From a virus, in IMG/VR virus record IMGVR_UViG_3300029725_000137, positions 1 to 19,309 of that record: 19,309 nucleotides of DNA. One strand, 5' to 3'. Below are positions 6,018 to 19,214 of the stretch, piece by piece. Each line of letters opens with the position of its first letter. The stretch's first letter is position 1. The notes beneath the pieces were generated by a model. The model was given only the letters and a program-made list of their open reading frames with translations, was not told where the DNA came from and searched no databases. Position numbers and translations under genes: made by a program.

Positions 6018-6941
6018 TTAAGCCGTGGCCGTCGCGTCGATGCGGACGATGGCGGACGGGTTGGTCAGCTTGGTCAGCGAGTAGACGCGGTTGGTTACCA
6101 GCGTCAAAGCGGGCGTCGGCTTGTATTCCGTGATGACTTCGCGGCGGAGCTTGCCGGACAAACCAAACGTCTTGATGGCAGAGGCGTCGAACTGCGTCGG
6201 GGAGTCTTCCTTGTACAGGACATAGACTTCGTTCTCCATGATGGTCTTGGCGTCGCCGGAAGCGTCGCGGTAGGGCATGGCTGCGATGTAAATATCCCTG
6301 ATAGGCCGAATCAGCGCATTGCGGAGCAGGTCTTCGTTGAAGAGGCCGACACTGTTGAATGACACCACCTGTCTGGCAATGGGGTTGGCTCGCAGGAGCT
6401 GCCAGGCGTTGATGCCAAAGACGATGGTGTTAGGCATGTGTCCAGTCGCCGCATTGATGGACAGGATGGCATTATCCAGATCCGTCAGCGGATTCTTCTG
6501 TTCGTTGGCCCAGTCCCCGTAACCGGCTGCGGCAGGCAACTGGCTGGTGATGAGCTTGGCACGTTCATATTCATACGAGGTCACAAACTGTGATTCGATG
6601 AGCTTGTATTCCGCCAGGGTGATAGCCTGCGCCTTTTCGCGGTTGACGCCCAGCAAGGCGTCCGGAATCGGCAAGGTTAAGCCGTACCCCTGAAGGGTGT
6701 CGGTTTCGTTCCTGCCGCGCAGGACGGTCTGGCGGGGAGGTTCGCCCGGTCCCACCTGGATCGGCTGGACCGTAAAGGCAGATTCCGTGTCCCAGACCTT
6801 GTACTGGAAATTGAGGTCGTAAACCGGGACGATCGGCGCAATGCGGCTGATAATGGAGTTCTCTTCGGTGTTTCCGGAACCCGCAGAATAAGCGGTCAGA
6901 ACATCGGTGAACTGGACGGCTGAGCAAAATGGAGTAGCCCT
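6018..6941 (-). CDS. Major capsid protein, lambda gpE-like family, with proposed AGG start
   Basis: The track ORF is 6018..6755, starting at GTG. The same frame is open back to the TAA at 6965..6963. The upstream part reads [AGG]ATPFCSAVQFTDVLTAYSAGSGNTEENSIISRIAPIVPVYDLNFQYKVWDTESAFTVQPIQ.., which looks like genuine capsid N-terminal sequence. No in-frame ATG/GTG/TTG lies in 6756-6962, and there is an in-frame AGG at 6941..6939. This start gives 307 aa versus an implausible 245 aa. The gene sits after the protease and the decoration-position gene. Confidence 0.7.
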   Translation of the reverse strand, partial: RATPFCSAVQFTDVLTAYSAGSGNTEENSIISRIAPIVPVYDLNFQYKVWDTESAFTVQPIQVGPGEPPRQTVLRGRNETDTLQGYGLTLPIPDALLGVNREKAQAITLAEYKLIESQFVTSYEYERAKLITSQLPAAAGYGDWANEQKNPLTDLDNAILSINAATGHMPNTIVFGINAWQLLRANPIARQVVSFNSVGLFNEDLLRNALIRPIRDIYIAAMPYRDASGDAKTIMENEVYVLYKEDSPTQFDASAIKTFGLSGKLRREVITEYKPTPALTLVTNRVYSLTKLTNPSAIVRIDATATA

Positions 6942-7426: not shown

Positions 7427-8542
7427 TTATCGTTCGGAGGTTACAATGTAGCCTTCTTCGGTGGCTTTCTGGAAAGCGTCGTACCGCTTCATGCCGCCCT
7501 TCATCAATTCGTCCACGCGGTTCCGGAATCCGTCGATGGATTCCTTTTTGCGGAACGGATTGGGCGGCGCCTGGGTGGCACGGCGGTTCAAGGACGTTCT
7601 TCCAACTGGATTGCGGCGGCTTTCGTCAACAACGTCATGCGGCGGCTTTGACTTCGCGGACCGATTGAGAGCCTTGACAAAGGCGCCCAGTGCGGCGGGG
7701 CTTTCCCGGAGAGAGTTTTTCAGCTCTTCCCGGCGTTCTTCCGTAAACTCCTCGCGTTCTTCCTCGTCCAGTGCGTTTTCATACGTACTGACGGCTTCGT
7801 CCACTTCGGCGTTCACGGCATTCTTCTCTCTCTTTTCCAGATCGAGAAGTTCATCCACGCGGCGGAGGATTTCCCTGGACATGTCATCGGTTCCGTCAAA
7901 TTCGACGTCCAATTTATCGAGCAGGGAATCAAACAGAGCCCGCTGGGCTCGGTCCATTTCCTTCGCCGGGTATTCTTCGGCGTTTTCTTTCATCGTTTTG
8001 TCTTGGTTGGTTTCCCCCTCTTCGGGGCTTTTGTTTTCGCCCCCGTCCTTGTCGGGGGAAGTCTGTCTATTGATGAGCGGGCGCTTGCCCTTGATGCGCG
8101 GACGGTTGGTCAACGCGAATCCCGTCAGGCGAGTGGGAGTGTAAACGCCGTCCTCCAAGGTCATGCCGTCCATATACTCCGTAGACGATTGCGTGTACTC
8201 CTTGTCGATAAGCATTTGCAGTCCGCGTGGCGTCCAGTCGATAAAACCGTACAATTCCAGGCTGCCTGACGGATCCCGGTAGGTATCCAGTTTTTTCAGC
8301 CAGCCCAGGGCCCGCGTATCGCGGCTGACGTCATGGCTGAGGTGATCGCCGTCAATCAGCATGCCGGGGCCATCGAAAGTGCGGGAATTGAATTCATCCA
8401 CCATTCTTTGAATGACCTCTTCATCAATGCGAAGGAGCGCGGGTCCTTCCCCGTAGTCAACCTCGTGATCGCCGGATTTCTCGATGTGATACCATCCGTT
8501 CTTCGGATCGCTTAAATCATTGATTTGTTTTGTACTGATCAT
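7427..8542 (-). CDS. Mu-like prophage protein I family head protease fused to an acidic scaffold-like C-terminal half
   Basis: N-terminus ..NGWYHIEKSGDHEVDYGEG..LLRIDEEVIQRMVDEFNS..GMLIDGDHLSHD.. matches the Mu gpI protease family pattern as I recall it. The C-terminal ~190 aa is highly charged and coiled-coil-like (scaffold-like). ATG at 8542 overlaps the portal 3' end by 26 nt. Confidence 0.7.
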   Translation of the reverse strand: MISTKQINDLSDPKNGWYHIEKSGDHEVDYGEGPALLRIDEEVIQRMVDEFNSRTFDGPGMLIDGDHLSHDVSRDTRALGWLKKLDTYRDPSGSLELYGFIDWTPRGLQMLIDKEYTQSSTEYMDGMTLEDGVYTPTRLTGFALTNRPRIKGKRPLINRQTSPDKDGGENKSPEEGETNQDKTMKENAEEYPAKEMDRAQRALFDSLLDKLDVEFDGTDDMSREILRRVDELLDLEKREKNAVNAEVDEAVSTYENALDEEEREEFTEERREELKNSLRESPAALGAFVKALNRSAKSKPPHDVVDESRRNPVGRTSLNRRATQAPPNPFRKKESIDGFRNRVDELMKGGMKRYDAFQKATEEGYIVTSER

Positions 8543-9881
8543 CGTAAAACCCTTTCATCAGCGCATTGTTGATAAGCTCCCTCAATTGTTCAAAAGCGTC
8601 GGGCGGTATACCGTTATCTTCAGCTTCCCGGTTGGATGCTGCCACAGGAGGAGCGGCATCCCGGGTGTCCTCGACGGACATGCCGAGCTTCTCTTCAACT
8701 TCCGTCTTTTCCAACCGCACGCCTCCATCCGCAAGAGCGGCGATTTCTTCCGCCTTCTGCAGCGGCGTCTGGACGGTATCAAAGGTGATCTGGAGTCGGG
8801 CCAGCGGTTCTGCGTCTCCCAGCACAAGAGGATTAACGGCAGTATTAAAGGCTTCCGCCACTTTGCTGCACACAGCGGACACGACGGAATTCCAGCTATC
8901 TGTATGCGCTCCCCCGGCCAGGGTGCCGGATCCCGATTCGTTCAACACAGTCAGAGTGCCGGCCATCACAAAGCGTACCTGATCCTTGTCGGCAAGATTG
9001 ATACGCGAGAGGAAATAGTTTTCATTGATGGAGGATGCCTTGAGGGGTTCCGCCGTACATCCGGGAGGCAGGACGACGGATGCACCTGACTTGAGTTCTT
9101 CGCAGGCGCGCTCAAGTGCGTCCATGACAGCGGCGCTTGCTTCTTTGGGAGCCGTGATGATGACCGGGGCGGACCCGTAGCGGTCCATGTGGTTGTCCCA
9201 GACAATCTTGGCATGGTTGCGCTCAAAGGAGGCTCGGGAGGCAGGAAACAGGATGGGATAGGGATGCTCCATCACCACAAGCGTTTCCTCTTCCACGCTT
9301 TCTCCCGTATCCACGCCAATATGGCATTGTGGGTTAAACTGCCACTCGTTCAGCTCGCCCGGGCGCACCCAATAACGCTGCGGAATAAATTCAAACCTCC
9401 GGCCCCAGGCGTCCTCGATAAATTGCAAATGGGCGTAGCCGTAAAATACCGCGGAAGCGAGTTGCCCAAACGCCGGCTGAAGGCCGTTAATGGAGTTGTA
9501 GAATTCTTCCAGGGCGTTTTTCTGTCTCTGTGCTTCGGGGCTGTCATTGGCGGCGTCAATTTTCCATCCCTGCATGGACACGCTTTCAATCATCCGCGAA
9601 TAGAGCATGCCCAGCATGCCGTCCGAATAGATTACCTCGTCCCAAATGAGCATTTGCCGCGCAAAGGCTCCCCTTCTGGCCTCATTGCGGGCATCAATGA
9701 GGGTTTGCAGGCCCGCCCCCTGGAGAGGATCCCAGTATTCAAACCATTGGGGGCGGCCAGGAAGGCGGCTCCGGTCCGTTAAGGCGCGTCGGGCAAGGTC
9801 TGTCTCAAGCTCCTTGATTCTGGTCTCTTGTTGTGCGACCAGCTTGGGAGCGTTGATGATATTTTTGACGGCGTTTAACCT
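8517..9881 (-). CDS. Portal protein, Mu gp29 / DUF935-like, with proposed AGG start
   Basis: The track ORF is 8517..9653 (ATG). The frame continues open upstream and reads [AGG]LNAVKNIINAPKLVAQQETRIKELETDLARRALTDRSRLPGRPQWFEYWDPLQGAGLQTLIDARNEARRGAFARQ-MLIWDEVIYSDG.., with no in-frame ATG/GTG/TTG. An in-frame AGG lies at 9881..9879, 23 nt downstream of the tRNA 3' end. This start gives 454 aa, a typical portal size. Confidence 0.72.
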   Translation of the reverse strand, partial: RLNAVKNIINAPKLVAQQETRIKELETDLARRALTDRSRLPGRPQWFEYWDPLQGAGLQTLIDARNEARRGAFARQMLIWDEVIYSDGMLGMLYSRMIESVSMQGWKIDAANDSPEAQRQKNALEEFYNSINGLQPAFGQLASAVFYGYAHLQFIEDAWGRRFEFIPQRYWVRPGELNEWQFNPQCHIGVDTGESVEEETLVVMEHPYPILFPASRASFERNHAKIVWDNHMDRYGSAPVIITAPKEASAAVMDALERACEELKSGASVVLPPGCTAEPLKASSINENYFLSRINLADKDQVRFVMAGTLTVLNESGSGTLAGGAHTDSWNSVVSAVCSKVAEAFNTAVNPLVLGDAEPLARLQITFDTVQTPLQKAEEIAALADGGVRLEKTEVEEKLGMSVEDTRDAAPPVAASNREAEDNGIPPDAFEQLRELINNALMKGFYDDQYKTNQ

Positions 9882-10025: not shown

Positions 10026-11399
10026 CTAATACCTGCCGATGGAACGATTTCTTTTTGGTCTTGTGACATACCAGGCTCCAAGCTCCCTGACCAAGCCGCT
10101 GTGTTTTCGTGCATGCCACGCCATGACAAGAGCGTCGGCCCGGTCGGGAGAACGAACTCCACGCTTTGCCATGTCCTCCTTGCTCTCGATTTTGACACGC
10201 CCGATCGCGTCTGTCTGGACGCGCGGTGCGACCAGCTGTTCGATTGTGTCCTCGTCGATGTCGAGAATGAGCTCTTTTTCCTCGATCGCACGGGCGAGCG
10301 CTCTCCAGGCCTGGGCGCGCAGATTGACAAAGGCCTGCGTATCGTCGGACGGAAAGCCGCCCCGGTAGGAGTGTATCGGGAAGCCCTCGGCCCGGAAGTC
10401 GTCGATGATGGGGAGCCCGAGTCCATCACCGTCGGCAAAGATACTGTCGGCGGGAATGCCAAGCTCGGCGGCTTTGCGCCGGAACCGTCCGCGGGCTCCG
10501 ACGGTGTCGGGGGCTGACCAGTGGTCGGCAATGAAGAAGCGATTGCCCTGCCCGGCCGCAAAGACGTTTTCGTCGCCCCCGGCGGCGAAGTCAAAGCCGC
10601 CGCAGGTCTCCCCGGTGTCCAAAAAGGGAGGCGGGTTGTTGAGCAGCTCCATGATGGCGCGGCGGGAAATGACGGATTGCCCGTCAAGGTCCGTGAATTC
10701 GCCGAGGATGGCCGAGCGGTAGAAGGAGGACTGTTCGCCGTATTCTTTTTTCAGGCGTTCGGCCTTGCCTGGATCGTTGATTTCGATGTGCGGGCAATCC
10801 TCGTATTTAACGCGGATTTTGTAGTAGAGGGATGAATTTTTGTGGAAGCAGTCGTAAAAGGTTCCGGAATCGGCACCCGGCGACGAGGTGATGAACGCGT
10901 TGAAGAGCGTGCAGCGGGAAACAGCGGTGAAGATGGGGTCCGGGATGGTCTTGGCTTCATCGAGGACGTAAAAGACCGGGTCAACGTCGGGCGAGATTTT
11001 CGGGTGCCATCCTTCCGCGCGTCCGGCGTTGTCGGTGGAGAATCCCACGGCAAATCCTCCTTCCGGCGTGCGGATTTCGGTTTTGTTGAATGTCCAGCCG
11101 TCAAAGAAGGGGTTATCCATATAACGGCGAAGCGCGGGAAAGAGCTGTTTTTCTACCTGCATCCACGATGATGACGTGACTGGCACCTGACCCCGAGGAA
11201 AATAGGTAAGGAAACACAGGATTGCCGGCGCAATGGATAGGCTCGTCTTTCCCGATCCGTTCGGAGCAACCATGGCCACGCTTCGGCCTCCCAGCCTCAC
11301 CTTTCCGAGAAGCAACGCCTTGATGGCCTCGATTTGCCAGGGATAAGGATCGAGTCCGAGGATGTGACGGAGGAAGAAGCTGACGGGGAGATGATTCCT
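10026..11399 (-). CDS. terL: Terminase large subunit with proposed AGG start
   Basis: Walker A is APNGSGKT, Walker B-like is VFYVLDEA, and the C-terminal half looks like the nuclease domain (..DFAAGGDENV.., ..ADGDGLG.., ..SPDRADAL..). The track ORF starts at TTG 11315. The frame is open to the TAA at 11408..11406, and the upstream part reads [AGG]NHLPVSFFLRHILGLDPYPWQIEAIKA-LLLGKV... The PYPWQ motif, typical of TerL N-termini, lies upstream of the first canonical start. In-frame AGG at 11399..11397. Confidence 0.8.
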   Translation of the reverse strand, partial: RNHLPVSFFLRHILGLDPYPWQIEAIKALLLGKVRLGGRSVAMVAPNGSGKTSLSIAPAILCFLTYFPRGQVPVTSSSWMQVEKQLFPALRRYMDNPFFDGWTFNKTEIRTPEGGFAVGFSTDNAGRAEGWHPKISPDVDPVFYVLDEAKTIPDPIFTAVSRCTLFNAFITSSPGADSGTFYDCFHKNSSLYYKIRVKYEDCPHIEINDPGKAERLKKEYGEQSSFYRSAILGEFTDLDGQSVISRRAIMELLNNPPPFLDTGETCGGFDFAAGGDENVFAAGQGNRFFIADHWSAPDTVGARGRFRRKAAELGIPADSIFADGDGLGLPIIDDFRAEGFPIHSYRGGFPSDDTQAFVNLRAQAWRALARAIEEKELILDIDEDTIEQLVAPRVQTDAIGRVKIESKEDMAKRGVRSPDRADALVMAWHARKHSGLVRELGAWYVTRPKRNRSIGRY

Positions 11400-11405
11400 G
11401 CTCGG

Positions 11406-11921
11406 TTAAGGGTGGAGTTTGCCGGCAATGGTTTCCAGCGCGGTTTTCTCGTCTTCCTGCAGCTGGGCGAGCTGCTCGGGGTCCAGCGTGATTTTCCGTT
11501 CCAGCGGCGCCCCGGGAACGCCGGCGACGTCCTGGCGGACCCGGTCTCCAAATTTTTCGGGAGCGAAACGGGCAGCGACTTTCAGCCGGGTTTCAATGGC
11601 GAGCTTCTTGGCAGCGACGGAGGCGGATCCGCAGTCGGGGTCGAGGGCAACCTGGGCAGCGGCATCTGACAAAGACTGACACTCGTCGAGCATGGCTTCC
11701 GACTGCGCTTCCCGCGCGCGCTGAATGAGTTTACAAAACTCTTCCCGTTCGTGCCTCCATCTCCAGACAGTTAAAACCTCCGGCATGTGATCGTCCGAGC
11801 AAATGGACTTCATCGTTTCCCCGTTGGCTAAGCGAGAGGCTATCTCGGCAGCTAACGCCTCCGTATAGAGGCTGGGCCGTCCTATTTTCTTGTTGGTGGT
11901 AGGTGATTGCTTCTTTTTCCT
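11406..11921 (-). CDS. terS: Terminase small subunit with proposed AGG start
   Basis: The C-terminal part ..RAREAQSEAMLDE..AAKKLAIETRLKVAARFAPEKFGDRV.. matches a widespread TerS family pattern. The track ORF starts at ATG 11813. The frame is open to the TAG at 11930..11928 and reads [AGG]KKKQSPTTNKKIGRPSLYTEALAAEIASRLANGET-MKSICSDDHMPEVLTVWRW.., the classic HTH N-terminus (GRPS.YT.E.A..I..RLA.GES) of this family. No in-frame ATG/GTG/TTG is present, and there is an in-frame AGG at 11921..11919. Confidence 0.75.
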   Translation of the reverse strand, partial: RKKKQSPTTNKKIGRPSLYTEALAAEIASRLANGETMKSICSDDHMPEVLTVWRWRHEREEFCKLIQRAREAQSEAMLDECQSLSDAAAQVALDPDCGSASVAAKKLAIETRLKVAARFAPEKFGDRVRQDVAGVPGAPLERKITLDPEQLAQLQEDEKTALETIAGKLHP

Positions 11922-12026: not shown

Positions 12027-12545
12027 GTGAAAAAGTGTCCTATATGCGGCAAGGATGTTCCGCCGCGCTACGGATCGCGGGAAAGAGTGTACTGCTCCCG
12101 CGCATGTCTCAAGGCACACTATGACGCCGCCTGGGAAACTATCACCTGCCCCGTGTGCGGAAAGGAATTCCGCGCTAAAAAACTCTTTCGGCGGAAACAT
12201 TGCTCTTATCCTTGCGCGAATGCAGCCCAGAAGGGGCGGAAAATCACGTCAGAAGCCTTTCAGGAGGCTTGCAAGCATCGGGGAGTTCCCGGCCCCAGGA
12301 AGCACCCCAGAACAGGGAAATTTGAGACAAATTGCCATGCAAAGATATGGCTGCTGGAATCCCCGGATGGAGAGAAAGTCACGGCTCGGAATCTCAAACT
12401 CTACATGATAGACCGGTACGGCGAAGAAAAGGGGAAAAAGGTCTATAAGCTCCTGGTTTGTGCTGCACAACGCTTCCGTAAATGCGGACATGGCGGCGGC
12501 GCCGGATGGCGGGTACTTGCCGCCCCTGCCGTCCCGAAGGAATAA
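12027..12545 (+). CDS. Tandem zinc-ribbon (FCS/TRASH-like) protein with a C-terminal phage DNA-binding-like tail
   Basis: 172 aa starting at GTG. It has two copies of CPxCGK-x(11-13)-(Y/H)CSxxC: CPICGKDVPPRYGSRERVYCSRAC and CPVCGKEFRAKKLFRRKHCSYPC. The C-terminal ..CHAKIWLLESPDGEKVTARNLKLYM...GWRV resembles tails seen on phage homing-endonuclease-like ORFs. That resemblance is from memory and low confidence. Confidence 0.6.
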   Translation: MKKCPICGKDVPPRYGSRERVYCSRACLKAHYDAAWETITCPVCGKEFRAKKLFRRKHCSYPCANAAQKGRKITSEAFQEACKHRGVPGPRKHPRTGKFETNCHAKIWLLESPDGEKVTARNLKLYMIDRYGEEKGKKVYKLLVCAAQRFRKCGHGGGAGWRVLAAPAVPKE

Positions 12546-12576
12546 AAAAGGGCAGCCCCGAAGAACCGCCCTTTTT
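12544..12576 (+). terminator. Candidate bidirectional-looking intrinsic terminator
   Basis: An A-run (12544-12549) precedes stem GGGCAG (12550-12555) / CCGCCC (12566-12571), which has one mismatch and a 10-nt loop. It is followed by TTTTT (12572-12576), directly after the stop of 12027..12545. Confidence 0.45.
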
Positions 12577-12746
12577 AAGGGAATGAGCGTTTCCGCTCGT
12601 GCTGATCTTGTGATCGTTTTAATCCACAGCCCCGGAGGGCTGACGTGTTCCTAGAAAGAACAAATTACTTCTCTCATATTTTGCGCCAGACCGCAAGCAA
12701 AAACGGAATGACAACTTTTTTCACCTTTTTTCATTTTTTCTCTTGC

Positions 12747-12769
12747 GTTACTATAAATTTTATAGTAAC
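12747..12769. promoter_or_regulatory. Perfect 23-bp palindrome, a candidate operator, in the AT-rich promoter region of the acidic-protein gene
   Basis: GTTACTATAAA-T-TTTATAGTAAC has 11-bp arms, all 11 positions complementary. It contains TATAAA/TATAGT -10-like hexamers and lies 75 bp upstream of ATG 12844. Confidence 0.5.
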
Positions 12770-12843
12770 TTAATTTTGTTGACGGGAGGTAAGGGACCGA
12801 ACGAAGACATAATCCAAACAACAAAACTAGAAAGAACAAGACA

Positions 12844-13167
12844 ATGAACGATAACAAAATCATCACCACGGAAGACGGAGAAGAAATCAACCTGACCGCT
12901 CTTGAACGTGAATTCGGCAGCTACGACTTTGAAGGCAAGACCTATTATGCAGCGCGCCAGATGGAATACACCAACAGGGTTTTCCCTGGCTCCTACGCGG
13001 ACAAATACGAGGACGGCAGCTACATGGAAGAATGGTCTGCTCCTGGCTATGATGCAGAAGGGAACAAGGTTGAAATCTTCATGGCCTTTGAACAAATGAC
13101 GGGCGAAGAAATTGACGGAGAAAACCTCAACTGGACGCAGGACGCTTCCCGCGTTGAAGCTCGCTAA
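12844..13167 (+). CDS. Small, strongly acidic protein (107 aa), function unknown
   Basis: ATG start. By my count there are about 25 D/E versus 9 K/R. It has its own AT-rich upstream region and a downstream hairpin. Confidence 0.65.
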   Translation: MNDNKIITTEDGEEINLTALEREFGSYDFEGKTYYAARQMEYTNRVFPGSYADKYEDGSYMEEWSAPGYDAEGNKVEIFMAFEQMTGEEIDGENLNWTQDASRVEAR

Positions 13168-13176
13168 ATAACCCCC

Positions 13177-13204
13177 AGGGGCGGCAAAGCCGCCCCTCCT
13201 TTCT
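13177..13204 (+). terminator. Candidate terminator or attenuating hairpin
   Basis: GGGGCGGC-AAA-GCCGCCCC (13177-13195) followed by TCCTTTCTC. The U-tract is poor, and the next ATG is only 5 nt further on, so it is probably leaky. Confidence 0.4.
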
Positions 13205-13208
13205 CACT

Positions 13209-14513
13209 ATGACCGCACAAGAATTTATCGACTGGCTTCAAACTGCCAACAATCTTCCAAATCCTACCCAAGCTGTAAAAAGGGCCGCGCAGATGATGCG
13301 GGTGACGGAAGATGTTATTTGGAAATGGTTAAATACTAAAAAACCATACCCCACGCCTGAATACATGCAATTACTCATGGATTTATTGCATGAGAAATAC
13401 CGAGAAAAGAGGTTTTACCGCATTCTTTCTCACGAACAGCGTGAAGAGATGCGGTCCATGTTGGGCAAAAAACCTGATCTGGAAATCGCCGAGCTACTCG
13501 GAATAGCGCGCGTCACGGTCCAGACTGAACGCTATAAATTAGGTATCAAAAAGTATTGCAGCCCTGAAGCAATCCGCATCCAACATGATGAAGAGCTTAT
13601 TGCAGTGCTCGGAAAAATTCCTGACTCGGAGTGTGCCAAGAAGTTTGGATACTCAAATTCCAGAGTAGCCTACCTTAGAAAGAAATTAGGGATTAAGTCA
13701 TATAAGGGGCCGCGTAAACCCCGTCAGCCACGAGACCCAAATAAACCACACAAGAAAAAAGAGTATCCCGAAGAGTTAATTAACATGCTTGGAAAGACCC
13801 CGGATGATGAAATTGCTAAAAAATTCGGTTATTCCAAGGCAGGAATTGCGCTTATTAGAAAAAAGATGGGCATTCCATCATTACCTGATACTAAATTCCC
13901 CAAAATGAAACGCGAAGAAATGCTATCTATGCTTGGAAAATTTCCTGATAGCGAAATTGCTGAAAAGTTTGGAATATCGCTTAATTTTGTAGCGCGGAAC
14001 CGTAGAAAATTAAAAATTGCTCAAGCTCCATACTCCCCCATTAAGGATGCGGACAAGGATATGATTCTTAATTTATTGGGAAGAGTATCAGATTTAAAAA
14101 TTTCAAAAAAAACAGGGTACAGCCCATATGTAATTAAAAAATTTAGAGAACAGAACAAAATTAAGCCTTTCAATAAAAGCATTTTAGAAAGATTTTCACC
14201 GGACCAACGTAAAAAACTCTTATCTATGCTTGGGAAAGTTTATGATAGAGTAATAGCCGAAAAATTTAATATTGATAACGAGGTAGTAAGAAGAATTAGA
14301 CAGAAATTGAATGTTCCGGCATTACGTGAGGAAAAAAGCTTGCAAGAAACAATAGAAAGGGACGAATACATTAAATCCCTGCTGGGCACAATGACTGATA
14401 AAGAAGTCGCTAATAAAACAGGCAAATCAATACAAGTTATCGGAAAAGCAAGGAGAAAATTAAATATCCCGGCGTTTGATACAAGGGGTCGGTCTACAAA
14501 GAAACAATCTTGA
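13209..14513 (+). CDS. Multi-HTH DNA-binding protein with an N-terminal HTH plus 7 tandem GerE / sigma-70-region-4-like repeats
   Basis: 434 aa with 7 repeats of the pattern (E/D)x(M/L)(L/I)xxLGKxPDxEIAxKFGxSxxxVxxxRRKLGI(P/K). Examples are LGKKPDLEIAELLGIARVTVQTERYKLGI, LGKIPDSECAKKFGYSNSRVAYLRKKLGI, LGKTPDDEIAKKFGYSKAGIALIRKKMGI, LGKFPDSEIAEKFGISLNFVARNRRKLKI, LGRVSDLKISKKTGYSPYVIKKFREQNKI, LGKVYDRVIAEKFNIDNEVVRRIRQKLNV and LGTMTDKEVANKTGKSIQVIGKARRKLNI. The period is 48-60 aa. The DNA is visibly AT-richer than the rest of the window. Confidence 0.8.
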   Translation: MTAQEFIDWLQTANNLPNPTQAVKRAAQMMRVTEDVIWKWLNTKKPYPTPEYMQLLMDLLHEKYREKRFYRILSHEQREEMRSMLGKKPDLEIAELLGIARVTVQTERYKLGIKKYCSPEAIRIQHDEELIAVLGKIPDSECAKKFGYSNSRVAYLRKKLGIKSYKGPRKPRQPRDPNKPHKKKEYPEELINMLGKTPDDEIAKKFGYSKAGIALIRKKMGIPSLPDTKFPKMKREEMLSMLGKFPDSEIAEKFGISLNFVARNRRKLKIAQAPYSPIKDADKDMILNLLGRVSDLKISKKTGYSPYVIKKFREQNKIKPFNKSILERFSPDQRKKLLSMLGKVYDRVIAEKFNIDNEVVRRIRQKLNVPALREEKSLQETIERDEYIKSLLGTMTDKEVANKTGKSIQVIGKARRKLNIPAFDTRGRSTKKQS

Positions 14514-14537
14514 TCTTTCCAAGATAAAAAGCGCCCC

Positions 14538-14632
14538 TATACGAGATTCCAGGGGGTATACGAGATTCCAGGGGGTATACGAGATTCCAGGGGGTATACG
14601 AGATTCCAGGGGGTATACGAGATTCCAAGGCT
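14538..14632. repeat. Head-to-tail tandem array of a 19-bp unit, 4 perfect copies plus 1 degenerate copy
   Basis: The unit TATACGAGATTCCAGGGGG occurs at 14538, 14557, 14576 and 14595. A degenerate copy TATACGAGATTCCAAGGCT is at 14614. The array fills the convergent gap between the multi-HTH gene stop (14513) and the loader stop (14631-14633). Confidence 0.95.
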
Positions 14633-15353
14633 ATTTCCTGGGATGGTAGTTGATCTCGCGGTAGGACTGCCACTCGCACGGGATGGCGCCGCCTGTCATG
14701 TGCATCCGGGAAGTAATGGAGGGACCAAGACTCGGCTCGACGTCTTCCCCGATGAGATTGGAAATGACCACAGTAATTTTTCCGTCCTGGTGACGGCTGT
14801 CGATAAGACGGTCAATGGAATATTGAGAAAAATCCGATCTCTTGAGCTCGTGGAATTCGTCAATAACCAAATAGGTAGGACGCTTGAACGCCCTGGCAAT
14901 ATCATTTTCCCGCTTGGACTCCCGCAAATCAAGGCAGTAGTCATACGCTTTGACGTATTTGACGGACCTTCCGAGCCGCACCAGGCCGCGGGCCAGGGAT
15001 GTTGCCATCACAGTTTTGCCAGTGCCGCAGGGCCCATGAAGCGCAATGATTGCTCCGGACTTCCGAGCAAAGTCCGCTAAACGGTCTCTGGCGGCTTTCC
15101 ACGGGCTTTCTGCATCGTTTACCCTATCCAGAGCTAAAACGGCCATTTTGGGGAAGCCAGAGGCCAGCAAGAGGTGAAATTCTTCCTGGGCCTGTTGCAT
15201 GGCTTCCCGCGTGAGCCGTTCCTGCTCCACTTTGGCGTCAAGTTCGGGGTCGTCCGATGCGAGGGCCGAAAGCCTGTCCAGCAGGGCGTCGATAGACCCG
15301 TCTCCAAACATATCCCGCACGTTGTGCAAATTCCGTGATGTGTTAATATCCAT
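14631..15353 (-). CDS. DnaC/IstB-like AAA+ ATPase, a replicative helicase loader
   Basis: Walker A is HGPCGTGKT and Walker B is YLVIDEF. I start the gene at MDINTSRNL (ATG 15353..15351), preceded by GGAG 5 nt upstream. It overlaps the upstream TAA (15345..15343). The track's N-terminal extension overlaps the upstream gene. Confidence 0.8.
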   Translation of the reverse strand: MDINTSRNLHNVRDMFGDGSIDALLDRLSALASDDPELDAKVEQERLTREAMQQAQEEFHLLLASGFPKMAVLALDRVNDAESPWKAARDRLADFARKSGAIIALHGPCGTGKTVMATSLARGLVRLGRSVKYVKAYDYCLDLRESKRENDIARAFKRPTYLVIDEFHELKRSDFSQYSIDRLIDSRHQDGKITVVISNLIGEDVEPSLGPSITSRMHMTGGAIPCEWQSYREINYHPRK

Positions 15354-16104
15354 AAGTTCTCCTTCCTGGTGTGGTTGTTGATGGTGAGGGCGTTCCTCTT
15401 CGGTTTTCGGCATAGCGCAAGGCGTAAGCCAATGCGGCGGCTTGCCAGTTGTTGATGGGGTTCCCCTTGGCATCCACCCATCCGCAAGCCTCTTTATCAG
15501 CGTAGAAAAGCATTGATAATTCGTTGATTTGAGATTCATTGAGAAGCAGACGGCCCCTCAATGCTTCGGCTTGGAGGTAGGCTTTCACTTTGTCGGAATC
15601 CTCCGGCAAAGCTCGTTGCCGGGAATAGGCTGTGTTTTCTCCAATATTATTATTCTCTTCTCTTCTCTTCTCTGGTCGGACATTGTGTCGGACAACGGTC
15701 GGACATGGTGTCGGACTTTTGTCGGACGCCATGTCGGAAACGTTGTCGGATTGGTCTTTCAGAGATCGCCGGATTCGTTTTGCTTCCGCTTCCAAGGCGC
15801 GGGCCTTGGAGGAATTGCCGTTGTGGCGGTCAAAGTTGGGGATTACAAGGGCGCCTTCACGGCCTTGCAACCAGCCAACGGAGACAAGGCCGCGGGCAAA
15901 TCCGGGACAATAAACAACCCGGTCGATGTGTGCATATTTCGTCTTAAGGATTCCGTCTTGAGTATTGGCATCGGCCCACGCCCAAAACCGCCACAGTTTC
16001 CCCAGCACAAAATCAGGGTCATCCATGTGCAGTATTTCCGCCAGCTTCACCACTTCGGGCTTGTCGGGTGTTGTGTGTTCAACTTTTATCCAGTCTCCGG
16101 CCAT
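15343..16104 (-). CDS. Phage replisome organizer / replication initiator-like protein
   Basis: I start the gene at MAGDWIKVEHTTPDKPEVVKLAEIL..GKLWRFWAWAD (ATG 16104..16102). This N-terminal pattern is typical of phage replication-organizer proteins. It lies directly upstream of the DnaC-like loader and contains an internal iteron array. Confidence 0.65.
   Translation of the reverse strand: MAGDWIKVEHTTPDKPEVVKLAEILHMDDPDFVLGKLWRFWAWADANTQDGILKTKYAHIDRVVYCPGFARGLVSVGWLQGREGALVIPNFDRHNGNSSKARALEAEAKRIRRSLKDQSDNVSDMASDKSPTPCPTVVRHNVRPEKRREENNNIGENTAYSRQRALPEDSDKVKAYLQAEALRGRLLLNESQINELSMLFYADKEACGWVDAKGNPINNWQAAALAYALRYAENRRGTPSPSTTTPGRRTYGY
15675..15751. repeat. Seven phased GTCGGA(C) iterons inside the replisome-organizer gene; candidate ori
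   Basis: (T/G)GTCGGAC begins at 15675, 15687, 15698, 15710, 15721, 15733 and 15745, a spacing of 11-12 bp. It is immediately flanked at 15643-15674 by the AT/pyrimidine-rich tract aatattattattctcttctcttctcttctct. Confidence 0.7.
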
Positions 16105-16135
16105 AATCAAAAAAGCGTCAGTTGGGGGTTGTAGT

Positions 16136-16738
16136 TCATAACCATTTGATGGTGCAGTTTCCGCGGTAGCTTTTAATCCAATGGAACCATGCGTATGCAA
16201 TCGCCCCACCTTCGGCCTTGGAAAAATCCCCGTTTTTGGCGCAGGTCCGCCGCTCGCTGAATACCCACACGTCGGAGGGGGGGGCAACGTCGAACAGCCG
16301 ACGACGGGCCTTGCCCTCTAAAAACTGAAGGCGCAGAAGCATCCAGACATTGGCTCCATCCTTGACGCAGGCAAGCGCACGCTCGACAAATTCAAGGGCT
16401 GTGGCGTAGGAAGGATTGGTCATAATATCCACGTCTCCTATCTCGCTACCGTCGAATTCCCACAAGAAATCTTGTACGCAGGAATCAGGACATCCACGGT
16501 CAACAATGTCGGTTGCACAGACTTCATGCCCCCGCTCCCGCAGGACATTGACGATATGACCAGCCCCGCAGGCCGGTTCCCATACACGTTTCCGGAGAGG
16601 AGCACCTGCGTTGAGCAAATCACGCACCATGTCAGGGTGTGTGGCGTAGTAGTCTTCCCGCGGGCGCTCGCCGGAGGCAAGGTAGGATGCGCCCAACGTG
16701 GCACCAAGAGTTCGGTTGTTACCTGTCCAGTCTTTCAT
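16136..16738 (-). CDS. Orphan DNA methyltransferase, N6-adenine or N4-cytosine class
   Basis: I start the gene at MKDWTGNN (ATG 16738..16736), preceded by AAAGGAGGGGGA. Motif I-like is VWEPACGAGH and motif IV-like is IMTNPSY, a variant of (D/N)PP(Y/F). No adjacent restriction enzyme gene is present. Confidence 0.65.
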   Translation of the reverse strand: MKDWTGNNRTLGATLGASYLASGERPREDYYATHPDMVRDLLNAGAPLRKRVWEPACGAGHIVNVLRERGHEVCATDIVDRGCPDSCVQDFLWEFDGSEIGDVDIMTNPSYATALEFVERALACVKDGANVWMLLRLQFLEGKARRRLFDVAPPSDVWVFSERRTCAKNGDFSKAEGGAIAYAWFHWIKSYRGNCTIKWL

Positions 16739-17082
16739 TCCCCCTCCTTTCTCGGCTCCCAGTTGATAGGGATGCCCTCGTTGATGCAGGGGAAACAAAA
16801 ATCTGGTACGGGAGTAATACCCTGATAAGTGCAATTGTGGCAATCGCGCCGTATTAAAGGCACCCACGCCCTGCATGCGGCCCGTCTTTCCCTGACTAGT
16901 TTGATAAAAAAATTAATCTCGGAATGCTTCCAGCAATCTTCCCGTTCTTTTCGTGTTAGTTCGCAGTAACTCTCTCCGTAGAATTGTCTTGCATAGCTAC
17001 GAGCTGCTTCGATTTTGTTGAAAAGAAATGCTTTGGCCGCGCCAAGCTCGTAAAAAGCCTTCTGTTCAGGCGTTTTCTTCAT
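16735..17082 (-). CDS. Cys-rich small protein, 115 aa
   Basis: I start the gene at MKKTPEQKAFYELG (ATG 17082..17080), preceded by GAGGAGG 6 nt upstream. It forms an ATGA overlap with the methyltransferase start. The C-terminus has CHNC...CFPC. Confidence 0.6.
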   Translation of the reverse strand: MKKTPEQKAFYELGAAKAFLFNKIEAARSYARQFYGESYCELTRKEREDCWKHSEINFFIKLVRERRAACRAWVPLIRRDCHNCTYQGITPVPDFCFPCINEGIPINWEPRKEGE

Positions 17083-18408: not shown

Positions 18409-18873
18409 TTATCCTTTCTTGATTTTAAGTTTTCCGCTTGGCCCCATGGTCCAGCCGTCAAAAGTGACGGTGCCGGACAGATTGATCACGGGGTAGGCGT
18501 CATAGGGACGGCAGCCAAACTTGCCTTTATCGTTCTTCACCCGTAGCCATGCGCCCCATTTTGCACCGATAACGGTATATCTATGTCCTCTAACTATGAC
18601 TTGCTGACCGTGCCGGAAGCGGGTGCCGTAGATGGCGTTGAGGGCGTCCAGATCGACTTGAGCGGCGTTCCTCTCCGCCTTTTCCTTTTTCCGTCTCCTC
18701 TTCTCGCGGGCAGCCTCTTCGCGAGCCTTGCGTGCCTCGTTGGCCTGGTTGGCGCGGAGTATCTCCATAGACTCGCGCTCGGCTTGTTCCTGGCTCTTCG
18801 TGAGGCCCGCCTTCTTACGGAGATTGTACGCAATCATGACCTGCCGTTTTTTCTCTCTTTCTTCGGGACTCAT
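18409..18873 (-). CDS. Hypothetical protein with a charged coiled-coil N-terminal half, 154 aa
   Basis: I start the gene at MSPEEREKKRQ (ATG 18873..18871). It forms an ATGA overlap with the DUF1064 gene stop, and AAGGAG lies upstream. The track's longer N-terminus would overlap the upstream gene. Confidence 0.6.
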   Translation of the reverse strand: MSPEEREKKRQVMIAYNLRKKAGLTKSQEQAERESMEILRANQANEARKAREEAAREKRRRKKEKAERNAAQVDLDALNAIYGTRFRHGQQVIVRGHRYTVIGAKWGAWLRVKNDKGKFGCRPYDAYPVINLSGTVTFDGWTMGPSGKLKIKKG

Positions 18874-19214
18874 TCCGCTTCTCCTTCCTGGATTGTTTCG
18901 ATTTCCCAACCCGTTTTTGTCTGCTTGGCAGCGATAAAAACAAAGGGGAACTTGTCGGCGGCCGTCTTGATTTTTACCCTGGCATCGTCGCGCCAAAAGC
19001 CTTTCACTTCGTGGAATTCAAGAGTGCCGTCTGGGCGGACAACCATGAAATCCGGCGTGTATGAGCAGCGGTTCCCCAAGATCAGTTTGACGGCTTCAAA
19101 CTTAAATTCCCGTATTTCCCCCTTGTTTTGGAGGTCAGACAGGTAAAAGCCATAGGCGGCTTCCGTCTTGTTCATCACGCCGGGCCGATGGATAGCTCTT
19201 GCCCTGGCTCTCAT
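18870..19214 (-). CDS. DUF1064-type PD-(D/E)XK nuclease, phage Holliday-junction-resolvase-like
   Basis: ..NKTEAAYGFYLSDLQNKGEIREFKFEAVKLIL..SYTPDFMVVRPDGTLEFHEVKGFW..DARVKIK fits the DUF1064 pattern (DF...E.KG). GGGAGG lies upstream, and the start forms an ATGA overlap with the upstream ORF. Confidence 0.65.
   Translation of the reverse strand: MRARARAIHRPGVMNKTEAAYGFYLSDLQNKGEIREFKFEAVKLILGNRCSYTPDFMVVRPDGTLEFHEVKGFWRDDARVKIKTAADKFPFVFIAAKQTKTGWEIETIQEGEAE

Follow-up and report, generated by a model that had tools for sequence, protein, structure and literature searches.

The 19-bp tandem array of an Akkermansia phage is probably a recently expanded, conserved boundary element at a recombination joint

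The perfect tandem array at positions 14538-14632 of the window, by which we denote the whole stretch of 19,309 nucleotides that was analysed (IMG/VR record IMGVR_UViG_3300029725_000137), is best explained as a recent VNTR expansion of a conserved 17-19-bp boundary element, here termed U, situated where the replication module and an accessory cassette have been joined by recombination; we assign this reading a probability of roughly 0.6. U consists of an invariant core, TATACGAGATTCCA, and a G-rich spacer, is usually present in one or two copies, and in a family of temperate Akkermansia phages lies immediately beyond the final stop codon of the replication operon, facing an accessory cassette of opposite orientation. 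We envisage U as a short island of identity through or beside which phage recombination functions could swap modules, with expansion proceeding by replication slippage or unequal crossing-over; the extra copies in the window may have arisen from out-of-register pairing of two-copy arrays during such an exchange, or from later slippage. The expanded array would have no array-specific function of its own, whilst U itself may be under selection as a sequence-specific site, given its invariant core amid variable spacers and flanks. The likeliest roles for U would be as a 3'-end or insulator site for the converging transcription units, or as a binding site for a host factor.

The window comes from a tailed, temperate Akkermansia phage. 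Over its structural half it has 81% identity to Akkermansia phage DTMo-2021a, the homologues found for its proteins carry Akkermansia labels, and related loci were found in bacterial contigs of 177-321 kb, on account of which these relatives are presumably integrated prophages. The gene order is mostly on the minus strand, where a tail fibre gene (1-2058), a gene with a weak match to major head protein families (6018-6755), a member of the Mu-like prophage protein I (Mu-like_Pro) family (7427-8542), a Mu-type portal gene (8517-9653) and the genes for TerL (10026-11315) and an Sf6-like TerS (11406-11813) lie to the left of the array. To its right, and also on the minus strand, are the genes for a DnaC-like helicase loader (14631-15353, with an ORF extending to 15539; PHROG 50, Pfam IstB), a replication initiator (15343-16287; PHROG 2509), a DNA methyltransferase (16136-16876) and a Holliday-junction resolvase (18870-19214). 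A plus-strand cassette of three genes (12027-14513) encodes a Zn-finger protein (12027-12545), an acidic 107-aa protein (12844-13167) for which no family match was found, and a 434-aa multi-HTH protein (13209-14513), the last recognised by Pfam/PHROG. Directly 3' of the Zn-finger gene, at 12545-12576, there is a strong bidirectional intrinsic terminator with a 14-bp stem and A5/T5 flanks, indicating that canonical terminators are in use by this phage. A T-rich ACTTTTTTC x3.4 repeat at 12714-12744, within AT-rich sequence preceding the 107-aa gene, may be promoter-associated.

Tandem Repeats Finder, when run on the window, reported 14538-14627 as a repeat with a period of 19, 4.7 copies, 100% matches and a score of 180. 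A pattern search located TATACGAGATTCCAGGGGG four times head-to-tail with zero mismatches at 14538-14613 (starts at 14538, 14557, 14576 and 14595), each perfect unit being composed of the 14-nt core and a G5 spacer. These two methods confirmed the perfect 19-bp x4.7 array of an earlier sequence-only reading, and likewise its decayed copy running into the stop codon of the DnaC-like gene: the fifth unit (14614-14632) retains an intact core at 14614-14627 and has three mismatches, every one of them inside the G-run, and its altered spacer, AGGCT, extends into the TAG stop (14631-14633, minus strand). Five unit matches were present in the window against 0.01 expected by chance, and none of 200 shuffles reached five. 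The flanking genes do converge, with the multi-HTH gene on the left and the DnaC-like gene on the right, and the gap between their stop codons (14514-14630) is mostly occupied by the array. The palindrome GTATAC, to which attention had been drawn, is indeed present at the four unit-to-unit junctions, but single-copy relatives read C-TATAC, which makes the palindrome a by-product of tandem joining.

A search for further U-like sites elsewhere in the window, including at any promoter, yielded none above chance, and an Rfam search of 14000-15200 at E<=10 returned as its sole match a 10-bit chance match away from the array. Readings of the unit as a sigma-70, sigma-54 or ECF promoter were rejected by eye, as the spacings misfit. 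The copy numbers given for the window and its relatives are those of the assemblies; an independent Logan contig encoding an identical multi-HTH protein ends within the array, as is expected with a repeated 31-mer.

Exact 19-mer and 17-mer scans of viral, metagenome and genome collections were combined with protein-based retrieval of relatives, in which the DnaC-like, small HTH and multi-HTH proteins served as queries. Approximately 60 non-chance loci with the unit were found, originating from viral contigs, metagenomes, Logan/ENA assemblies and one Akkermansia MAG. The position of the unit was constant in these loci: it lies 0-4 nt beyond the stop of the final replication gene, which is either a DnaC-like allele or, if there is no loader, a 331-336-aa initiator, and a plus-strand cassette always ends on its other side. 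Among 185,579 representative genomes the 19-mer had no match, and the 17-mer had one Akkermansia match, in a prophage, along with six chance matches in unrelated taxa; a host repeat or attB was rejected as the origin of the unit on these grounds. The unit is absent from the isolated Akkermansia phages DTMo-2021a and Chambord.

Two copies of the unit are the state of most loci, and a single copy was present in L003, L007, L021, L027, L028, L030, L035, L070 and L114/L115. Larger arrays with a 17-bp period were found in L033 (four copies) and L071 (6.0 copies, 100% matches), whilst the 4.7 copies of the window constitute the largest 19-bp array seen in the survey. Copy number, which ranges from 1 to 6 across the family, also differs between close relatives: those in which the left flank and multi-HTH gene are 97.2-97.4% identical to the window have two cores, one in a perfect and one in a variant copy, as against five in the window. 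Internally identical expansions were found to be independent of one another (19 bp x4.7, 17 bp x4 and 17 bp x6.0). Both the near-identical relatives and the expansions in L033 and L071 bear out the earlier suggestion that perfect identity reflects recent expansion. The comparison of copy number that had been proposed as a check found variation among near-identical phages, which, as far as copy number goes, is the outcome that the sequence-only reading had named as counting against its proposal. The array is akin to bacterial and phage VNTRs in its perfect head-to-tail repeats, in the 1-6 copies among close relatives, in its independent expansions and two periods, and in that short-read assemblies break at the repeat; it differs from them in that what is repeated is no anonymous sequence but a conserved element that keeps its genomic position throughout a phage family.

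The core was identical in 137 of 137 copies from 27 flank haplotypes, a count that exact-match scanning biases towards perfect units, whereas the 30-nt flanks on either side of it had a mean ungapped identity of 48-55%. Exact cores were also present in 15 of the 16 loci retrieved by protein, to which the bias of exact-match searching does not apply, and in second copies, which had not been selected by the search. At least six variants of the 3-5-nt spacer follow the core (GGG, GGGGG, GGGGC, GGGGT, AGGGT and GGACC), and the base or bases preceding it vary from CCCCC to GA. From this invariance amid drifting spacers we infer that the core is under purifying selection. A neutral linker alone offers no obvious account of an unmutated core beside mutating spacers. 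That both cores are invariant in two-copy arrays also weighs against an expansion devoid of array function, in that more than one copy is possibly useful, as in multivalent binding.

The array could on that basis be a multivalent site (an operator, a roadblock or a sponge) recognised by a protein that binds DNA or RNA, such as the Cro-like HTH domain of the gene just upstream or a host factor, with binding becoming stronger as copies are added. Several features would suit a site of this kind, namely a non-palindromic 14-nt core that is invariant in every copy, the second included, whilst spacers drift; a Cro-like HTH gene that in almost every locus lies to the left of U at a distance of no more than approximately 1 kb; and three independent expansions to 4-6 perfect copies. 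We nevertheless consider it quite improbable, as the putative partners and the element do not travel together: L062 and L092 have kept the small HTH gene (87% identity) without U, leaving a gap of just 7 nt, L109 has a multi-HTH gene without U, and L045 and L049 differ in U whilst their Rep and DnaC-like proteins are 97-98% identical. Most phages, multi-HTH-bearing ones included, have just 1-2 copies, none of the window promoters has a second U-like site, and the occurrence of both 17- and 19-bp periods implies that there is no helical phasing constraint.

The preferred reading, of U as a boundary element, draws on the comparison of the two flanks, which showed the window to be an apparent recombinant with its joint within the array. 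The left flank is 97.2-97.4% identical to L002, L006, L013, L014, L017 and L040, in which the DnaC/Rep alleles are different, whereas the right flank shares 87.9% identity across 1655 nt with L005, L032 and L037, in which the left gene is different; the first 53 nt right of the array are closest to L069 (94%). According to blastn, left-flank homology stops at 14573, and right-flank homology begins at 14595 or is confined to the first 53-90 nt, such that the breakpoints coincide with the element. The G5 spacer of the four perfect units is of the left-parent type, as in the first unit of multi-HTH-bearing relatives, and the last unit (CCAAGG-C TATTTCC) is of the right-parent type, as in L069, a locus of a rabbit Akkermansia MAG.

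Across the family, U is a short sequence common to dissimilar adjacent modules (137 identical cores), and the modules to its left and right reassort independently, with approximately seven left types found alongside four to five right types. All four combinations of the multi-HTH or small HTH gene with the two types of DnaC-like tail were found. Independent left joints all fall 0-3 nt from the core; they are formed by a truncated terminator arm in L110, L116 and the window, by an amidase-gene remnant in L114 and L070, by a 100-aa gene in L004 and by a 196-aa gene in L021, with another in L075. In one instance, IMG/VR contig 3300029428_000026, the unit is present at both ends (L001 and L010), with the multi-HTH gene to the left of one and the small HTH gene to the left of the other, which indicates that the ends of this contig were joined by assembly through the shared unit. 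The presence of both left variants on this contig also means that a single gut sample contained the two side by side. Recombination genes known in the family are those for a YqaJ exonuclease, PDDEXK and RusA, to which the window adds its Holliday-junction resolvase.

Phage mosaicism has been proposed to arise by way of short conserved boundary sequences, of which examples have been hard to find and are rarely documented (PMC3029335). Recombination systems of the Red/RecET type are able to recombine short or diverged homology (PMC2327257). U is similar to these boundary, or 'linker', sequences, which the modular-evolution hypothesis places at the mosaic junctions of temperate phages (PMC3029335, PMC2327257), in that it is short, conserved between dissimilar modules and located at gene boundaries, in that modules reassort around it, and in that the phage family encodes recombination functions. 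It is dissimilar in being tandemly amplified with a variable copy number and in having a core more conserved than simple hitch-hiking predicts, the joint being known here from sequence comparison. The family would thus provide a well-sampled case of such a boundary sequence at a mosaic joint, in the phages of a medically relevant gut commensal, with the invariant 14-nt core as a concrete candidate recognition site. In practical terms, the repeat is usable as a strain-typing marker for Akkermansia prophages and is a known cause of breaks in metagenome assemblies.

A stronger version of this proposal, which we hold to be rather doubtful, would have U as a dedicated exchange and insulator site bounding the replication module, its core being recognised by a putative host factor or Cro-like HTH factor. 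Were this true, the converging operons would be insulated by such recognition, and cassettes would be inserted or exchanged precisely at the edge of the core; U would be a phage analogue of integron attC sites or plasmid pdif modules, its strength set by the number of copies.

The left joint of the window falls at 14526-14537, where AAAAAGCGCCCC represents what is left of a bidirectional intrinsic terminator, namely the A-tract and the 5' arm of the stem, the loop and 3' arm having been lost. This terminator is intact in L109 and L107 (AAAAAAGCGCCCCC-loop-GGGCGCTTTTT, the loop in L109 being ATTTGAGA), whilst L110-L113, L116-L117 and the window have its A-tract and 5' arm fused straight to the units, which identifies 14526-14537 as half of a truncated terminator and, by the same comparison, apparently as the left recombination joint of the unit. 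L114 and L115 instead have the intact terminator and a 41-nt amidase-gene remnant ahead of a single unit. In keeping with the sequence-only reading, which had seen no terminator hairpin between the converging genes, a terminator scan of 14514-14630 found no canonical hairpin and T-run between the two stops. To the left of the joint, an AT-rich inverted repeat, ATCTTG/CAAGAT, at 14507-14525 spans the TGA stop of the multi-HTH gene (14511-14513); a hairpin is predicted for it on both strands, and on the plus strand it is followed by no U-run.

It is conceivable, though in our estimation unlikely, that U belongs to a 3'-end or insulator element serving the converging operons, in which the G-run and C-runs of the context form terminator-like hairpins; tandem copies would then be tolerated by-products, and the expansion would have no role. 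Like a bidirectional intrinsic terminator, U always sits between two converging stop codons, and relatives without U (L093, L107 and L109) have canonical intrinsic terminators in that slot, of which the window retains the 5' half. New plus-strand genes, moreover, have always been inserted upstream of U, as they would be for a retained terminator. Where the unit follows an initiator gene (the Rep-type context), G5 plus AT pairs with ATCCCCCC in the C-rich end of that gene and is followed by a U-rich tail, with folding z-scores of -1.7 and -2.9, and for loci with the multi-HTH gene the RNA of the minus strand has the form CCCC(C)-loop-GGGG(G)-CGC(G)-UUUUU. The negative terminator scan stands against this reading, as does the window array itself, which has no stable GC hairpin with a U-run and folds no better than shuffles (z-scores +0.12 and +1.65), and there is no conserved hairpin. 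The upstream C-run, furthermore, is not conserved (0 to 5 C), the first unit of L110 has GGACC in place of the G-run, and L114/L115 have kept U despite an intact bidirectional terminator 41 nt away. Fourteen invariant bases would also be needless for a terminator loop. A separate proposal, that U is an inverted partial copy of the DnaC-like tail forming a long hairpin with it, was rejected, since local alignments gave p values of 0.06-0.98 and MFE structures were inconsistent across 24 haplotypes.

The multi-HTH protein consists of a Cro-like N-terminal domain (aa 1-65) and seven tandem HTH repeats of approximately 50 aa each. Most relatives have, ahead of the unit, a free-standing gene for a 66-aa Cro-like HTH protein, to which this N-terminal domain is homologous. 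Family searches with this small protein gave weak matches of the Cro/YdaS/MqsA type, with N15 Cro at E=0.47 in PDB; assignment to the VC1465 Xer-activation family was rejected, the match of 15 bits being far under the cutoff and no dif-like sequence being present. Homologues of the multi-HTH protein range from 386 to 728 aa with a variable number of repeats; one of them (P0044) has a GIY-YIG nuclease domain, and in L103 the ORF is cut after 189 aa. The GC content of the multi-HTH gene is 36-44%, compared with approximately 55% for the phage.

The proposal that the array binds the adjacent multi-HTH protein does not hold up, as the unit is unchanged in many phages without the gene. Most loci have the unit with the 66-aa HTH gene or others in place of the multi-HTH gene, multi-HTH-bearing relatives have 1-2 copies, and in L109 a 728-aa homologue adjoins an amidase gene and an intact bidirectional terminator with no unit. 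The multi-HTH gene is a mobile accessory gene, inserted as low-GC DNA, and not a partner of the unit. Judging from the differing joints of L110-L113, L116-L117 and the window on the one hand and L114/L115 on the other, it was joined to a pre-existing unit at least twice. The 107-aa protein always precedes the HTH gene, in L109 too, where the position in the genome is different, and the two genes seem to form a mobile module. The protein-mediated roadblock also put forward for the array, or an insulator, may conceivably apply to the single unit, but no candidate binder tracks it.

Two further readings of the array as a replication or segregation cis-site, either a second set of iterons or origin for the initiator or a centromere-like partition site, were examined against the replication genes, and we judge them very improbable. 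Direct repeats of 17-19 bp are of typical iteron length, and the array lies directly downstream of the replication genes, where the origins of some dairy phages are located. Type II partition centromeres can be similarly built, with 20-bp repeats in the parC of pSK41, and the array resembles these and iteron arrays as a set of 17-20-bp tandem direct repeats adjoining replication genes. The unit differs from both in being single-copy in many relatives. Nor does it co-vary with the initiator: the Rep proteins of unit-bearing phages have 34-97% identity and different N-terminal domains, whilst the core is invariant, and L045, with the unit, and L049, without it, have Rep proteins that are 96.8% identical. 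Iteron-like GTCGGACA repeats with 11-12- and 23-bp periods are present inside the initiator gene at 15675-15750 and are probably the true origin; they have no sequence similarity to the 19-bp unit. A (TTCTC)x4.2 microsatellite lies directly before them at 15653-15673. With respect to a centromere, Pfam/PHROG scans of the window ORFs detected no partition families, and the relatives in 177-321 kb bacterial contigs are apparently integrated in the chromosome.

No more credible was the idea that the Sf6-like small terminase recognises the array as a packaging (pac/cos) site. Short repeats are frequent in small-terminase sites, and in relatives without a cassette (L049) the region following the replication genes is directly upstream of terS. 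In the window, by contrast, the unit is 2.7 kb from terS, and it does not co-vary with TerS, which is identical or near-identical with and without the unit (L061 versus L092; L021 versus DTMo-2021a and L049). The operator-array, iteron, centromere and pac readings are all left unsupported because no neighbouring protein tracks the unit, and U appears not to be a site for the multi-HTH protein, Rep or TerS. The function of the unit, whatever its nature, would seem to be dispensable, since relatives with the same genes lack U (L049, L062/L092). The effect is to remove the centromere, iteron-set and multi-HTH-operator readings with which the sequence-only reading had begun.

Both the DnaC-like and the initiator ORFs are longer than their homologues. 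The real start of the DnaC-like gene is probably M63 (15353), giving a loader of 240 aa, and that of the initiator is probably near 16104, which together would remove an apparent overlap of 197 nt. An exact look-up of the 302-aa DnaC-like ORF found nothing, as would be explained by the M63 start. The last approximately 18 codons of the DnaC-like gene (14633-14685) form a conserved block that is inherited with the unit, the first 53 nt right of the array being conserved across DnaC-like alleles. Unit-bearing alleles end in a YREINYxxRx tail, followed by the stop, that is inherited together with the unit and cassette. The DnaC-like proteins of L045 and L049, which are 97.9% identical, differ only in the last approximately eight codons ('..YREINYHPRE' versus '..FRELREEAEQGG', each ending at the stop), and this variation in the loader tail points to what may be very fine-scale mosaicism at the boundary. 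The alternative loader tail, 'LREEAEQGG', resembles the 'LREEMGLGG' end of initiators that have no loader.
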